This document shows positions 8,729 through 56,357 of a stretch of 56,357 nucleotides of DNA, piece after piece. The position numbers were made by a program, and so were the translations under genes. The stretch is taken from positions 1 through 56,357 of the IMG/VR virus record IMGVR_UViG_3300037419_000959. One strand, given 5' to 3'. Origin of the DNA: a virus. Position 1 is the stretch's first letter. Every line of letters starts with the position of its first letter. A model generated the notes under the pieces. The model did no database searches. It worked only from the letters and a program-made list of their open reading frames with translations, and was not told where the DNA came from.

Positions 8729-9256
8729 CTATGCTTTCTTCTGCTTGCGGGAGTGTGCGAAAGCCAAGAGAGACGCGCCAAACACGCTCATCCAAAGCTT
8801 GCCGATGATCTGTCCGACGATAAAATCGAATGATCCAAAGGCGACATAGAGGAAAACAGCACTGTCAACTACTGATCCGACAACACCGCTCAGAAGAACG
8901 GCAAGAACCATGCTTTTCGCTCTGACCGGCGTGTATACGGCGAGATCACCAATCTCAGCCAACAGGAATGCCAGGACCGACGCGACGACAAGGAAGGGCG
9001 GAGCGAAGAACCACGAAGCCACAGCCCCGATCGCAATTGCGATGAGTGCGCCTTTTACGCCTGCTGTCTCCTGTACGAAGTCGCGGAGCACAAGTGAGGC
9101 TCCAACCATCAGAACACCCGATGGCGCCAGAAAGCCGAACCCTACAGGGATCAAACATGGGCCATTAGGAACACATTGGCCGACATGGCCAATCATCCAG
9201 TTGGCGAGTGGGATTGTTGCGGCATAGGCGGCGATAGAAATGACTGATTTAAGCAT
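8729..9256 (-). CDS. yhhQ: VUT/YhhQ-family membrane protein (queuosine-precursor preQ0/preQ1 transporter family)
   Basis: 175 aa, polytopic. Family-like motifs occur in order: SGVLMVGASLVLRDFVQETAG, LLAEIGDLAVYTPVRAK, LLSGVVGSVVDSAVFLYVAFG, GQIIGKLW. Confidence 0.7.
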   Translation of the reverse strand: MLKSVISIAAYAATIPLANWMIGHVGQCVPNGPCLIPVGFGFLAPSGVLMVGASLVLRDFVQETAGVKGALIAIAIGAVASWFFAPPFLVVASVLAFLLAEIGDLAVYTPVRAKSMVLAVLLSGVVGSVVDSAVFLYVAFGSFDFIVGQIIGKLWMSVFGASLLAFAHSRKQKKA

Positions 9257-9494
9257 AGCGGTGTTGCGCCGGAGCGTCCTTCGGGTTGGAGAGATGGACT
9301 CTGATATCTAGTGCTAGCTTGGGGTTCTTTTCTTCTTTGAAGGCGGCGTATGCCCAGAGCGCACGAACTGCCTCTGGATCGCTGCCATCGAAGGAAAGGA
9401 CCATGTATCGGCGGTCTGACGGGATAGGCTGACCGTCTGTTCGCTCGATAATGAACCGCGGCTCATAGCCGCCCGTGTTGCTACGCGACTGCAT
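9249..9494 (-). CDS. Hypothetical protein (81 aa) wedged between the dpdA-like and yhhQ-like genes
   Basis: ORF track. Overlaps both neighbours (14 nt and 8 nt). No motif recognised. Confidence 0.5.
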   Translation of the reverse strand: MQSRSNTGGYEPRFIIERTDGQPIPSDRRYMVLSFDGSDPEAVRALWAYAAFKEEKNPKLALDIRVHLSNPKDAPAQHRYA

Positions 9495-10086
9495 CGAACA
9501 TGTTCCCTTGATTGTGTCGTGAGGCGATGGCTTGGCGCATATGCGAGTACCGAGCTATGCCGGTTCCATCGCAGGAGTCGGCGCCAAGCTTTTCAAAATG
9601 AGACCAACGCTCCGGACCATTGACCCGACCAATATGCACCCATTTTTCGAGAGCCTTGGCTGCTCGGATGATGTGCTCTACGTGGGCGGAACATTTCCAA
9701 TTCGTGGTGCCGCCGATGAATACGGCAGAGATGTCATCCCACGGGATCGGCAGGTGCTCTTGTCCATCCTGGCAAACCAGAGCTATTTTCCAGCCATCAA
9801 GTCGGTTCAACCAGCGCTCAAAAACCTCAAGTGTCCGCCGAGCTGACCCAACAACATCAGGGGCAGCCACAAACAGGCAGTTTTCGCGATGGTGAGATTC
9901 GCGCTTGAGAAGCGCTTCCAATCCCTGAATATCTAGACCAGAGAAACCGCCATTGTCTATCGCCCAAGGCTTCGACGCATCACGCAAGGTGTATCGGGTC
10001 AAAGGGGTCAAGAGTTGACCTACATCGCCACGCAATTCCGCAGCGCATTCATCCAAATCCTGACCATTGTCGAGAAGAGCGATCAT
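9481..10086 (-). CDS. dpdA: TGT-fold transglycosylase, DpdA-like (7-deazaguanine DNA modification)
   Basis: 201 aa from ATG 10086, with GGAGGAGG SD and a 1-nt stop/start overlap. Ordered motifs AIDNGGFSG, FVAAPDVVG, VFIGGTTNWK and GADSCDGTG parallel the TGT motifs DSGGFQ, substrate Asp, GG loop and GxDxFD. The Zn-Cys cluster and tRNA-binding domain are absent. Confidence 0.6.
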   Translation of the reverse strand: MIALLDNGQDLDECAAELRGDVGQLLTPLTRYTLRDASKPWAIDNGGFSGLDIQGLEALLKRESHHRENCLFVAAPDVVGSARRTLEVFERWLNRLDGWKIALVCQDGQEHLPIPWDDISAVFIGGTTNWKCSAHVEHIIRAAKALEKWVHIGRVNGPERWSHFEKLGADSCDGTGIARYSHMRQAIASRHNQGNMFDAVA

Positions 10087-10493
10087 CAGACCTCCTCCAC
10101 CTTCCATGCCGAGAACTTCCGATCGACCGGCGCGACAACGAAAAACCGAAATGGATAAATCGAACTGGCGATCTTCACCTTCGCCCAGGCGTCATCCTCG
10201 ATCATCTCAAACGAGCCCTTTACGTCGTGCTGTTCGAATTCGTAGGCGCCGTTCATCACCGAGAAATCCATGGTCAGAAACGTGTTGTCCGCCAGACGCA
10301 GCTTCACCCCTTCGAACTTCCACCACAGCACGTCACCAAGCGATTTCAGCGTGTCGAGATATCCGGCATATGCTGCCTCTGTCTTGTTCATTGTTCCTGG
10401 CTTTAGACGGCCAAGGGCGAATTGCTTCTTGCCGCCTGCCTTCGGCTCGACTGGCCGTTGACGGAACTCCCGCGCTGACATGCGGTCCTTCAT
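10086..10493 (-). CDS. PD-(D/E)xK nuclease-like protein (possible recombination/junction endonuclease)
   Basis: 135 aa from the internal ATG (MKDRMSAREF..). TMDFSV...EQHDVKGSF gives a D...(D/E)xK arrangement, and the overall layout resembles DUF1064/VRR-NUC-type phage nucleases. Confidence 0.5.
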   Translation of the reverse strand: MKDRMSAREFRQRPVEPKAGGKKQFALGRLKPGTMNKTEAAYAGYLDTLKSLGDVLWWKFEGVKLRLADNTFLTMDFSVMNGAYEFEQHDVKGSFEMIEDDAWAKVKIASSIYPFRFFVVAPVDRKFSAWKVEEV

Positions 10494-10626
10494 CACGCAG
10501 CCTCTTTCGTCTTCGGCGCATAGACGAGACGCGTGGGAACAGCGCCGCATGTTTGACACCAGTTCTCTATTTGCTCGGCTGAGCACAGAAACCGATTGCA
10601 TCTGTGGCAATAGTCTTTTGGGTGTT

Positions 10627-11295
10627 TCATGCTGCCTTGTCCTTTCCCTTGCCTACCGAGATGAACTCGATGGGTTCTCCAGGCACATCATCGTCAAACA
10701 CCGCGCAGCAAAGCTGGCCGCCGAAGACACAGCCACCATCGATGTTTGTGCGATTGCCGATCGTCAGGGGATTGTTGGATTCTGGCGTGTGGCCGTGGAC
10801 GAGATGTTTGTCCCAATAAGTGCCAGACCAATGCGGCGGGAAGCGCTTCCACAGCAAGTCATGTTCGCTCTGGCAATCGAATGGGACAGTTTCATCTACG
10901 CCAGCATGGACGAAAATACGGTAGCGATCATGGTGGATCATCGGCAAAGCTTCGGCCCATGCGAGATGTTTCCCCATTACTTCCAGGCTCTCATAGGAAG
11001 AGAGCGTCATGGAGCCGCCATTACCGACCCACCACGCCAGAGGGTTGTCTCTGCGGATGCAGGAAACCATCATGTCTTCGTGGTTGCCTTTGAGTGCTAC
11101 CCACTTCCATTTGTCGCTCTTCGGGCCGGCCATGATGATATCAATGACGCCCTTGCTATCTGGGCCACGATCGACATAATCGCCAAGGAAGACGACAGTC
11201 CCGCCATCCGGGCGAGCCATGCGGATGCGATCGAGAAGGCGCTCAAGCTCTTCCCTGCACCCGTGAATGTCGCCAATCGCAAATGTGAAGCTCAT
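10627..11295 (-). CDS. Ser/Thr protein phosphatase, PPP/lambda-phosphatase-type metallophosphoesterase
   Basis: GDIHG, GDYVDRG, GNHE and VHGH motifs occur in canonical order. 222 aa. Confidence 0.9.
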   Translation of the reverse strand: MSFTFAIGDIHGCREELERLLDRIRMARPDGGTVVFLGDYVDRGPDSKGVIDIIMAGPKSDKWKWVALKGNHEDMMVSCIRRDNPLAWWVGNGGSMTLSSYESLEVMGKHLAWAEALPMIHHDRYRIFVHAGVDETVPFDCQSEHDLLWKRFPPHWSGTYWDKHLVHGHTPESNNPLTIGNRTNIDGGCVFGGQLCCAVFDDDVPGEPIEFISVGKGKDKAA

Positions 11296-11389: not shown

Positions 11390-12016
11390 TCAGCGTTTGC
11401 CAGCGGCTCGTTTGCGTTCGTCATCGGAGAAGTTGGCGACGCTGCCTGTTGAGGTGTAGGCCGCTGTTCGGCTGGAAAGGCCCTTCATAGCGTCGGCGTA
11501 GCTTCCGGGAGACATGTTGAGCGTCTGGCCGACGTTGTTGCCCAGCGACGATCCTTGAGAGAACGCATCGAAATTGGCCCCGATGAAAATCACGTCGTAG
11601 TTCTTGGCCCGCATGTCGTCGAGCATAGCCTTGGCCGCATCCTTCGTGATCTCCTGACTGGCGTTCTCTATGCCGTCCGTGAGGATGACGATGGTCGCCC
11701 GCTTCGGAGCGTCCGAACGAATAGATGTCACAAGCTTGCCGATCGCATCGAAGAGCGGCGTTGCGCCGCGCGGGTCGACTTCGTGGGCGCCGATCGGCTG
11801 CCAGGACGAAGCAATCATCTTGTCGCGCATCACCTTGTAGGGCTCTTGACTGTCGAAGGCCGCGACAGTCACCGCAGTTTCCTTCGTCGCCTTGTCGCCC
11901 TTGAGTCCGTCGACATAGGCGTTGACAGCGCCTATCGTCTCCGCCCAATTCGACTGCATGGAACCGGAACGGTCCAGCAGCATATATGCTTTGTTGTCAG
12001 TCTTTGTTTTGACCAT
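11390..12016 (-). CDS. von Willebrand factor A (vWA) domain protein
   Basis: MIDAS DRSGSM (DxSxS), TPLFDAI and IVILTDG motifs. 208 aa. Confidence 0.85.
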   Translation of the reverse strand: MVKTKTDNKAYMLLDRSGSMQSNWAETIGAVNAYVDGLKGDKATKETAVTVAAFDSQEPYKVMRDKMIASSWQPIGAHEVDPRGATPLFDAIGKLVTSIRSDAPKRATIVILTDGIENASQEITKDAAKAMLDDMRAKNYDVIFIGANFDAFSQGSSLGNNVGQTLNMSPGSYADAMKGLSSRTAAYTSTGSVANFSDDERKRAAGKR

Positions 12017-15037: not shown

Positions 15038-15520
15038 TCAAAAATCCCCTGGAGCGACTTGGCAGCAGACGATTCCATGGGACCGCCACATAGCGACGAC
15101 GGTTGCCCGATCCTCGAAAACAAGAACTGGCTTGCTATCGAGTTCGTTGAGCCACTCCTCCTTGAGGATTGTATCGGGCCGATGATCGCCTTCTTCACGC
15201 ATCTTGAGCGGGATCATTCCGGCGCCGATGTCATCGAGCCACGCTATGGTTTTGTCGTTCACCTCAGCAGAGCGACCTGTCCATATCCTAACATCCGCGC
15301 CCGTGGCGTAGAGAGCGAGCATGGTGCGAATGATGGGTTGACATGGGGCGTCCTTGTCGCAAGCCGCGTAGAAGCCGCGCCAGTCCTTTTTCTCGCGTTT
15401 CAGGAAATGTTCTCGGTGGCCTGTGAGAGCCAACGTTCCGTCGAGATCGAAGATGACGAGCATGTGTTTCCACCTATTGGAGACAATGGCTTGTTCTGGA
15501 AGCGGGAGTGCTTCGCTCAT
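15038..15520 (-). CDS. HAD-superfamily phosphatase (polynucleotide 3'-phosphatase/nucleotidase-like)
   Basis: Motif I FDLDGTL, then IWTGR, then VFEDR in HAD order. 160 aa. Confidence 0.7.
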   Translation of the reverse strand: MSEALPLPEQAIVSNRWKHMLVIFDLDGTLALTGHREHFLKREKKDWRGFYAACDKDAPCQPIIRTMLALYATGADVRIWTGRSAEVNDKTIAWLDDIGAGMIPLKMREEGDHRPDTILKEEWLNELDSKPVLVFEDRATVVAMWRSHGIVCCQVAPGDF

Positions 15521-56221: not shown

Positions 56222-56357
56222 TGTGCAGGAGCCGCGCTAGGTGCGCCACCAGGGGCAAGGCCGGCCTGCTGTAGAGCCTGTGTGCCTTCGCCGACATTCT
56301 TGGCCGTGAGACCGCCCGCATTGAGCACCTGTGCTGCCTGGGCTAGCTGTGCTGCCT
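56218..56357 (-). CDS. Portal protein C-terminal end (same gene as 1..1652; 56231..56357 duplicates 1..127)
   Basis: In-frame continuation ..AP AQ TGA (stop at 56218..56220) after the repeat. Confidence 0.8.
   Translation of the reverse strand, partial: AAQLAQAAQVLNAGGLTAKNVGEGTQALQQAGLAPGGAPSAAPAQ
56231..56357. repeat. Terminal direct repeat, right copy (identical to 1..127)
   Basis: Read directly, 127 of 127 identical. Confidence 0.97.

Follow-up and report, generated by a model that had tools for sequence, protein, structure and literature searches.

Results

Layout of the locus and of the phage genome

The DNA analysed here is the IMG/VR virus record IMGVR_UViG_3300037419_000959 in its full length of 56,357 nucleotides (the window). 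Our subject is a set of three small genes at positions 8729-10086, which a first-pass annotation made from the sequence alone had read as a salvage-only module for 7-deazaguanine DNA modification, consisting of a DpdA-like transglycosylase and a YhhQ-like precursor importer. The window ends in an exact 127-bp direct repeat (positions 1-127 and 56231-56357) and therefore represents a circularly closed, complete genome of ~56.2 kb. The encoded proteins include an integrase, a cI-type helix-turn-helix (HTH) protein, Sf6-like TerS/TerL and a podovirus-like virion module, and the phage is temperate and podovirus-like. Its nearest protein relatives are found in Rhizobiaceae, Devosia and Agrobacterium (pro)phages, and its host probably belongs to the Rhizobiales. 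A megablast search with the module region against sequenced phages gave no match, so that collection contains no close relative of the phage. The features of the locus are as follows:

9481..10086, minus strand: short DpdA-like TIM-barrel protein (phrog_15826), predicted 7-deazaguanine DNA transglycosylase
9249..9494, minus strand: 81-amino-acid protein overlapping both neighbours, recurrent and facultative accessory of DpdA/VUT modules
8729..9256, minus strand: 175-amino-acid polytopic VUT/YhhQ membrane protein (COG1738, Pfam Vut_1), predicted importer of preQ0, preQ1 or a related 7-deazaguanine base
10086..10610, minus strand: DUF1064/endonuclease-I-like (PD-(D/E)xK-type) junction resolvase, a neighbour and not part of the module
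10091..10098, minus strand: Shine-Dalgarno sequence GGAGGAGG, 4 nt upstream of the ATG at 10086, read directly from the sequence

That three overlapping, co-oriented genes occupy this region was borne out by the list of open reading frames (ORFs) and by reading the junctions. The list holds, on the minus strand, ORFs at 9481..10107 (208 amino acids), 9249..9494 (81 amino acids) and 8729..9256 (175 amino acids), with 10086..10610 (174 amino acids) upstream. As all homologs of the first protein begin with MIALLDNGQ, the true start of its gene is the ATG at 10086, which yields 201 amino acids. This ATG overlaps the TGA stop codon of the upstream nuclease gene by 1 nt, so that the two genes are translationally coupled. 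The 201-amino-acid gene and the 81-amino-acid ORF share 14 nt, the 81-amino-acid ORF and the VUT gene share 8 nt (ATGCTTAA), and by these overlaps the three module genes form one translationally coupled unit. A scan for promoters and terminators found no site above chance inside the module, which sits in a block of replication/recombination genes.

Relation of the 201-amino-acid protein to DpdA

DpdA is treated as the signature gene for 7-deazaguanine DNA modification, and a bacterial form (bDpdA) and the phage types DpdA1 to DpdA4 are recognised (Cui et al. 2023, PMC10516641). bDpdA and the tRNA-guanine transglycosylases (TGT) are defined by three invariant Asp residues, a stacking aromatic residue and a Gly loop (G206-G207 in bDpdA; PMC10164549). 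The four motifs that had been quoted as parallels to the TGT barrel are present in the 201-amino-acid protein in the claimed order: AIDNGGFSG (42-50), FVAAPDVVG (72-80), VFIGGTTNWK (122-131) and GADSCDGTG (168-176). The only family matched by the protein is phrog_15826 ("unknown function", E 2e-36). This family comprises 2,763 clusters at 50% identity, nearly all of proteins with ~200 amino acids, and we refer to it as the short family. Across 109 diverse members, D44, D77, T85, Q106, F123, G126, G153 and D173 are invariant; 108 members keep G125, and 108 have F or Y at position 48. The close homologs are 70-99% identical which, together with the intact catalytic columns, indicates purifying selection.

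Profile-profile comparison connects this family with phage DpdA. With hhalign, the profile of 109 short-family sequences matched 77 DpdA1 sequences with 72% (P 3e-5), 63 sequences of a ~230-amino-acid DpdA type with 92.5% (P 5e-7) and a merged DpdA profile with 95.6% (P 1e-8, score 62). All control profiles stayed at or below 11%. QueC, QueD, QueE, FolE, VUT and a neighbouring family reached 0.2-4%, with QueE, itself a radical-SAM partial barrel, at 0.4%; unrelated families scored 12-22, and a reversed profile together with 40 column-shuffled profiles scored 10-29. In this alignment, which is collinear, D44-N-G-x-F lies opposite D-S/N-G-A-F and P-D77-V-V-G opposite (I)P-D-V-I / L-D-g-I-G-D, while G125-G126 corresponds to G-G, H151 to the conserved His of DpdA1, and D173 to the Asp of DSSSW/DSTD. 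The motifs noticed at first pass thus correspond to invariant or nearly invariant family columns that align with the acid/base Asp, the base-binding Asp, the Gly-Gly loop and the nucleophile Asp of DpdA. From sequence we predict a catalytic set in which D44 serves as acid/base together with F48, D77 and Q106 bind the base, G125-G126 form the loop for the 7-substituent and D173 is the nucleophile. The short family also differs from phage DpdA in having invariant residues of its own, namely T85, Q106-D-G, K131, R154-V-N156 and R160.

The AlphaFold model of the protein (pLDDT 88, pTM 0.84) contains eight beta strands alternating with helices, and each strand is followed by one of the motifs; the invariant Q106-x-G108 follows strand 101-105, and G125-G126 follow strand 121-124. 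In a viral structure library, most of the named top matches of the model are phage DpdAs ("queuine tRNA-ribosyltransferase" of Bella96, Sonali gp87 and others). A protein of phage phiST, M4SLA5, which is possibly its DpdA3, is a weak Foldseek match (E 0.02, 12% identity). The best structural match of the model is BFVD entry A0A0F7L9Z1 from an uncultured marine virus (499 amino acids; E 6e-9, TM 0.70, 20% identity). This protein is more than twice as long as the model and may be a fusion of a short barrel with another domain.

Only two Cys/His columns, C70 and H151, are conserved in more than 50% of the 109 members, and the protein ends ~28 residues past D173. With no conserved Cys cluster, the structural zinc site (CxCx2Cx22H) is absent from the short family, as the first-pass annotation had stated, and so are the zinc subdomain as a whole and the DNA-/tRNA-binding insertions of bDpdA. 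The accompanying statement that this is the minimal architecture expected for a phage DpdA could not be maintained: canonical phage DpdAs have 230-310 amino acids and belong to another PHROG (887 versus 15826). The window protein, Sonali gp81, Majeke gp54 and the protein of locus L080 match phrog_15826 only, and the DpdA1 and ~230-amino-acid types match phrog_887. Local hidden Markov models (HMMs) of DpdA1 and of the ~230-amino-acid type do not match the short family, and HMMER finds no cross-match between PHROGs 887 and 15826. Neither the window protein nor 116 family members match DUF6610 (PF20314, DpdA4), and tblastn with the window protein matched no Schizotequatrovirus or Campylobacter phage. 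Direct sequence search and profiles of 13 and 116 sequences returned nothing TGT-related among PDB chains. An hhalign comparison with the single sequence of E. coli TGT is too insensitive to be used here, as the DpdA1 and merged DpdA profiles themselves reach only 2-5%; likewise, the DpdA1 profile barely sees E. coli TGT. With the profile-profile comparison as the decisive part, sequence analysis supports the 201-amino-acid protein as a remote homolog within the DpdA/TGT superfamily.

The only annotators to call the family DpdA-like are those of SEA-PHAGES, who name actinophage members "DpdA-like tRNA-guanine transglycosylase". Other members are mis-annotated in GenBank, namely those of roseophage CRP-701 (locus L007, 4902-5501) and Erythrobacter phage ZS04 as "ssDNA-binding protein" and "DarB-like antirestriction protein".

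The VUT/YhhQ-type membrane protein

The assignment of the 175-amino-acid product to the VUT/YhhQ family of membrane proteins proved sound. It passes Pfam Vut_1 (PF02592) with 39.3 bits against a cut-off of 27.2, as do the neighbours' VUT proteins, and several hydrophobic 19-mers exceed 1.6 on the Kyte-Doolittle scale. An HMM of phage VUT proteins finds E. coli YhhQ (E 3.5e-12; hhalign 89.5%), and BLASTP gives 33% identity to YhhQ over a 51-residue core. The protein stays below the NCBIfam equivalog cut-offs (TIGR00697, 32.5 versus 50.95 bits; PRK11212, 19.3 versus 252). Its PHROG, phrog_4899, also contains phiG7_11, the VUT-family gene of the 7-deazaguanine cluster of the CAjan-like Seuratvirus phiG7, located at the position where phage CAjan carries yhhQ. 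By sequence the protein is a genuine YhhQ-family permease, with a 7-deazaguanine base as its putative substrate.

Biosynthesis genes in the complete genome

Pfam searches of all non-structural and structural ORFs revealed no GTP cyclohydrolase I, PTPS/QueD, QueE-type radical SAM, QueC, QueF or TGT domain. When all six reading frames were scanned with local QueC, QueD, QueE, FolE and DpdA1 HMMs at E<=10, the VUT gene and the short protein were the sole matches. This agrees with the earlier report of no folE, queD, queE, queC or queF gene and, as the window is closed and complete, the negative holds genome-wide. The same Pfam and six-frame DpdA1 searches found no canonical DpdA gene. The genome contains no DpdB ATPase partner and no restriction-side dpd genes, and PADLOC gave no match.

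Genomic context of the short family

We surveyed 80 viral contigs carrying the short family with flanks of up to 10 kb on each side, counting as partners the genes within 3 kb on the same strand. QueC/QueD/QueE and/or FolE genes, usually overlapping, accompany the short gene in 36 loci and VUT in 10; neither is present in 34, and both together in none. HMMs for DpdA1 and the ~230-amino-acid type found no canonical DpdA in any of these loci, and the short family occurs in only 1 of 80 DpdA1 loci. The short gene lies inside preQ0 operons in Pfam-confirmed orders such as QueD-short-QueE-QueC-FolE (L080) and QueD-short-QueC-QueE (L076). This embedding, together with the lack of a canonical DpdA, indicates that the short protein fills the DpdA slot. 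The ~230-amino-acid DpdA type has an adjacent VUT gene in 30 of 80 loci. Taking the short and ~230-amino-acid types together, VUT and Que genes do not co-occur in any of 160 loci (Fisher one-sided P 2e-7, a value that is indicative only since the loci are phylogenetically related). A role in precursor salvage would be expected to leave such a pattern of either synthesis or import. Exceptions are found among Queuovirinae-type DpdA1 clusters, which sometimes carry VUT and the full pathway.

The adjacent pair of short protein and VUT recurs in a Devosia prophage, in other prophage and metagenomic contigs, in roseophage CRP-701 and in Mycobacterium phage Majeke. Prophage copies of the pair are found close to the end of the prophage, at a distance of a few genes from the integrase. 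Of eight isolated phages whose VUT resembles that of the window, seven carry a DpdA-type gene no more than a few genes away from it, and in six this gene is adjacent or one or two genes away. In Majeke, gp53 (locus L005, 6361-6987; annotated hypothetical) is a Vut_1 protein (Pfam E 5e-12) encoded directly upstream of the short DpdA-like gp54. The host, M. smegmatis, is without a preQ0 pathway (PMC6884629), and Majeke therefore offers a cultivable natural test of import-dependent modification.

Other arrangements were seen among short-family loci. In 20 IMG/VR loci (L026, L031-L054 and others) the sole detectable partner is a ~190-amino-acid QueC (Pfam E 3e-44 in L035) that overlaps the start of the short gene, and QueD, QueE and FolE were not seen there; such phages may turn CDG of the host into preQ0, or the contigs may be incomplete. 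Eight further loci have QueD only. In Erythrobacter phage vB_EliS_R6L (locus L006, 5935-8440, gp10-gp7), the short gp10 lies two genes from a "PAPS reductase" of the PP-loop family, like QueC/DndC, which could be a different precursor-processing partner. The Seuratviruses phiG7 (locus L002, 5938-6530) and SHIN8 have a short gene broken into two ORFs that overlap each other and lie between polymerase subunit genes. In phiG7 these are phiG7_20 and phiG7_21, and a frameshift, a pseudogene or recoding could be the cause. Vibrio phage R29Z, which is related to phiG7, has an intact short gene at the same position beside a canonical DpdA.

The 81-amino-acid ORF and neighbouring genes

The 81-amino-acid protein carries the signature GG[LY]EPRFIIER.DG.PI..RRY.VL.F.G.DP...YA...NP.LA.DI...AP.QHRYA and belongs to a family of 240 clusters, all annotated hypothetical. 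Homologs adjoin a VUT and/or DpdA-type gene, QueD or QueE in 12 of 13 other loci, for example as DpdA-81aa-VUT in Pam5, QueD-DpdA-81aa in DMCA and VUT-81aa-x-DpdA in RHph_X2_30. Of nine IMG/VR loci with a homolog, five contain VUT, five contain a DpdA-type gene, which belongs to the short family in two of them, and one contains QueE. We also considered that the ORF might be a mere local insertion and rejected this, as tblastn and dedicated loci place its homologs repeatedly beside VUT/DpdA genes. Neither three close contigs nor the 80 viral loci contain the ORF, which is therefore facultative. Its AlphaFold model (pLDDT 83) has an extended N-terminus followed by a helical hairpin and no structural match in the PDB. 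By its recurrent context, the 81-amino-acid protein is a real, uncharacterised accessory of the module.

The first-pass annotation had named both this ORF and the upstream nuclease as possible accessory components; that suggestion stood for the former, and the nuclease turned out to be only a neighbour. The product of 10086..10610 matches phrog_190 "Holliday junction resolvase" (E 2e-17), and its homologs are annotated DUF1064, endonuclease or endonuclease I-like. We rejected it as a module component because such resolvases are widespread and because, in Pam5 and DMCA, a distance of more than 10 kb separates them from the DpdA module. It is also unrelated to the PDDEXK_15 gene beside the L076 operon. 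The same early-gene block encodes, on the minus strand, a NinI-like Ser/Thr phosphatase (Metallophos; 10627-11295), a VWA-domain protein (11390-12016) and a PNKP-type HAD phosphatase (15038-15520), none of which is linked to the module in other loci.

Discussion

Proposed function of the module

We consider it reasonably probable that the module is a precursor-salvage system for 7-deazaguanine, in which import by the VUT protein is followed by post-replicative exchange of guanine by the short barrel with D173/D44 chemistry. As genes for precursor synthesis are lacking, the phage would most likely protect its DNA with a scavenged base. Wherever sequence analysis could test the first-pass interpretation, it found support for it, with DNA modification itself a prediction. 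We infer the substrate, DNA (not RNA) as target, the chemistry, the anti-restriction benefit and any role of the 81-amino-acid protein in the following scheme. The VUT/YhhQ-type permease in the host inner membrane would import a 7-deazaguanine base, most likely preQ0, and so raise its intracellular level, to which the host's own preQ0 may contribute. The 201-amino-acid enzyme, a minimal (beta/alpha)8 barrel, would flip selected guanines out of replicated phage DNA and put the imported base in their place through the double-displacement chemistry of TGT. D44 could act as general acid/base while F48 stacks on the base, D77 and Q106 could read the Watson-Crick edge, and the G125-G126 loop might accommodate the 7-substituent. 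DNA modified in this way would resist restriction. The 81-amino-acid protein may be a facultative partner, perhaps a subunit that targets the transglycosylase to DNA or stabilises it, or a link to the permease.

More tentatively, and as a possibility on which we would not yet rely, phrog_15826 might be an overlooked fifth phage DpdA subfamily, minimal and without zinc, which inserts 7-deazaguanine alone or with the 81-amino-acid partner and which, together with VUT, would be self-sufficient in hosts without preQ0, as in the case of Mycobacterium cluster-P phages such as Majeke; on its relation to DpdA2 (Vibrio phage nt-1 type) and DpdA3 (phiST/CP220 type) the evidence is indirect.

Evidence against the proposal and alternative explanations

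Several observations weigh against guanine exchange in DNA by the short protein. Pfam, NCBIfam, PADLOC bDpdA and PDB sequences provide no link of the protein to TGT or DpdA, and searches with Pfam PF01702, PADLOC DpdA and the PDB TGT/DpdA chains also gave no match for the 116 family members. The silence of Pfam, NCBIfam and PADLOC was dropped as an argument against membership in the TGT superfamily, since the canonical DpdA1 controls of phiG7, Sonali and R29Z likewise miss the Pfam TGT model (PF01702), which makes the Pfam negative uninformative. The comparison with known structures, proposed at first pass as a check, gave a divided result: phage DpdAs are indeed among the named top matches in the viral library, with weak values (E ~1e-3, TM ~0.5), and the top 50 PDB matches contain no TGT or bDpdA and consist of generic TIM barrels at E>=1e-4. 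The PDB search returns TIM barrels only and therefore cannot discriminate. Without the DNA-binding insertions of bDpdA, the grip of a 200-amino-acid barrel on DNA is unexplained. Sonali, phiG7 and R29Z hold both a canonical DpdA and the short protein, and the two are thus not simply interchangeable. With regard to import, deletion of yhhQ in CAjan, which makes its own preQ0, had no effect on modification. Finally, among the DpdA-only phages tested by Hutinet et al., the DNA of Orion was unmodified and that of 7-11 carried dADG at 0.02% of Gs (PMC6884629). Since the DNA of a DpdA-only phage can be unmodified, modification is undecidable from sequence.

Some of these points would suit a short barrel that acts in 7-deazaguanine metabolism without being a DNA transglycosylase, either in precursor processing (as a nucleoside or nucleotide hydrolase, a phosphoribosyl-type transferase or another preQ0-handling step) or as helper of a separate DpdA. 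The PDB matches to aldolases, ThiG and GDPD instead of TGT, the canonical DpdA beside it in the three isolated phages and QueC as sole partner in 20 loci all point in that direction. However, the 80 loci, in which no canonical DpdA was detected in up to 10 kb of flank on each side, even those with full preQ0 operons, would then represent pathways that lack the inserting enzyme. Moreover, each of the invariant residues has its counterpart in the catalytic set of DpdA, and the profile-profile match is specific to DpdA, with QueE, a partial barrel, near zero. We therefore judge this alternative unlikely, while holding it the most credible of those considered here. An RNA target, with an imported queuosine precursor re-tuning host tRNA modification and translation, would fit the unmodified DNA of Orion and the fact that TGT, the prototype of the superfamily, acts on tRNA; phage genes of the queuosine pathway have been proposed to boost host queuosine-modified tRNA (Q-tRNA; PMC6884629). 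We find it very improbable, given that the nearest detectable relatives are DNA-acting phage DpdAs and not TGT, that the zinc subdomain and the tRNA-binding insertions are absent, and that the gene lies among replication/recombination genes, coupled to a junction resolvase.

The module might also serve the lysogen instead of, or besides, the lytic cycle, by marking prophage and host DNA in the manner of bacterial Dpd systems or by altering precursor uptake as a form of lysogenic conversion. A temperate phage with integrase and cI-like HTH protein, and the place of the pair near the integrase and the prophage end, are compatible with this. However, the restriction-side dpd genes and a PADLOC match are lacking, the module has no promoter or terminator of its own above chance and is coupled to lytic-cycle neighbours, and strictly lytic-looking phages such as CRP-701 carry the same pair, so that a lysogen role appears distinctly improbable to us. 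The least credence goes to a system that is effectively silent or decaying in this host and yields no meaningful DNA modification. The unmodified or scarcely modified DNA of Orion and 7-11 and the split short genes of phiG7 and SHIN8 might be taken as precedents for it, but in the window all three ORFs are intact and overlapping, a strong Shine-Dalgarno sequence stands ahead of them and the catalytic columns are intact. We retain salvage of an imported base for DNA modification as the preferred interpretation.

Implications

Censuses based on DpdA1-4 miss the short family with its 2,763 clusters. If the reading of phrog_15826 as a fifth subfamily is true, 7-deazaguanine modification would be far more widespread in environmental and temperate phages than such censuses show, and would depend on exogenous precursor. 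If the family is active, it would comprise the smallest known nucleic-acid transglycosylase, a barrel without zinc and DNA-binding insertions that could serve as a scaffold for mechanistic and engineering work. The pattern of biosynthesis or importer, never both, bears on the question raised in 2019 from where DpdA-only phages obtain their base. Tractable cases are Majeke on M. smegmatis, which cannot make preQ0, and phiLM21 and the RHph phages on rhizobia. The 81-amino-acid protein is a new, previously unannotated component. For the window itself, the analysis provides a confident annotation and the prediction that restriction sensitivity depends on the growth medium.

Comparison with known systems

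The salvage architecture as such has been catalogued before, and by sequence the enzyme found here is a distinct, undescribed minimal subfamily. Hutinet et al. (2019) reported 76 phages with DpdA and without preQ0 genes, suggested host preQ0 or uptake as the source of the base and noted YhhQ homologs in some of them; the phage DpdA alone suffices for preQ0 insertion into E. coli DNA (PMC6884629). Their Supplementary Data 1 lists three phages with DpdA and an adjacent YhhQ only, namely Sinorhizobium phage phiLM21 (gp25-gp26), Clostridium phage CDKM15 and halophage eHP-6 (PMC6884629), and hence a salvage-only architecture is not new. As in the window, the transglycosylase gene of these phages adjoins a VUT gene and preQ0 genes are lacking, and phiLM21 gp26 is 69% identical to the window VUT. 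In contrast, their transglycosylases were found by PSI-BLAST from the DpdA of phage 9g, whereas the window has a short-family protein and an inserted 81-amino-acid gene. None of the short-family carriers is in the 2019 census. The gp25 of phiLM21 itself (locus L267, 1623-2447; "queuine tRNA-ribosyltransferase", 274 amino acids) is matched neither by the DpdA1 nor by the ~230-amino-acid-type HMM at E<=0.01; thus, at least one further divergent DpdA type is paired with VUT.

The permease resembles E. coli YhhQ, a transporter of preQ0/preQ1, and the yhhQ product of the CAjan 7-deazaguanine cluster in the core D-x-x-V(F/Y)-x-x-(L/V)R ... S-x-x-x-G-x-x-x-D(S/T)-x-x-F with 33-35% identity, and differs from E. 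coli YhhQ in length (175 versus 221 amino acids). In contrast to CAjan, the window phage is without its own preQ0 synthesis.

With phage DpdA1 (9g/CAjan) and the ~230-amino-acid type (phrog_887, "queuine tRNA-ribosyltransferase"), which are DNA guanine transglycosylases for preQ0 insertion, the short family shares the TIM barrel, the collinear D-x-G-x-F, P/L-D-x-I/V-G, His strand and nucleophile Asp, and the partners QueC/D/E/FolE or VUT; it differs in being 30-100 amino acids shorter and in forming a separate PHROG. DpdA2 was reported to lack the conserved His (PMC6884629), which the short family keeps as H151. Compared with the bacterial DpdA of Salmonella Montevideo, the three Asp residues stand in the same order and with similar spacing (95/130/256 versus 44/77/173; PMC10164549). 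Bacterial DpdA and TGT share with the short protein the aromatic residue four positions past the first Asp and the Gly-Gly loop after beta-6, and neither gives a direct sequence or Foldseek match to it. The short protein is about half their size and has neither the CxCx2Cx22H zinc site nor the insertions Ins1/2/3/8.

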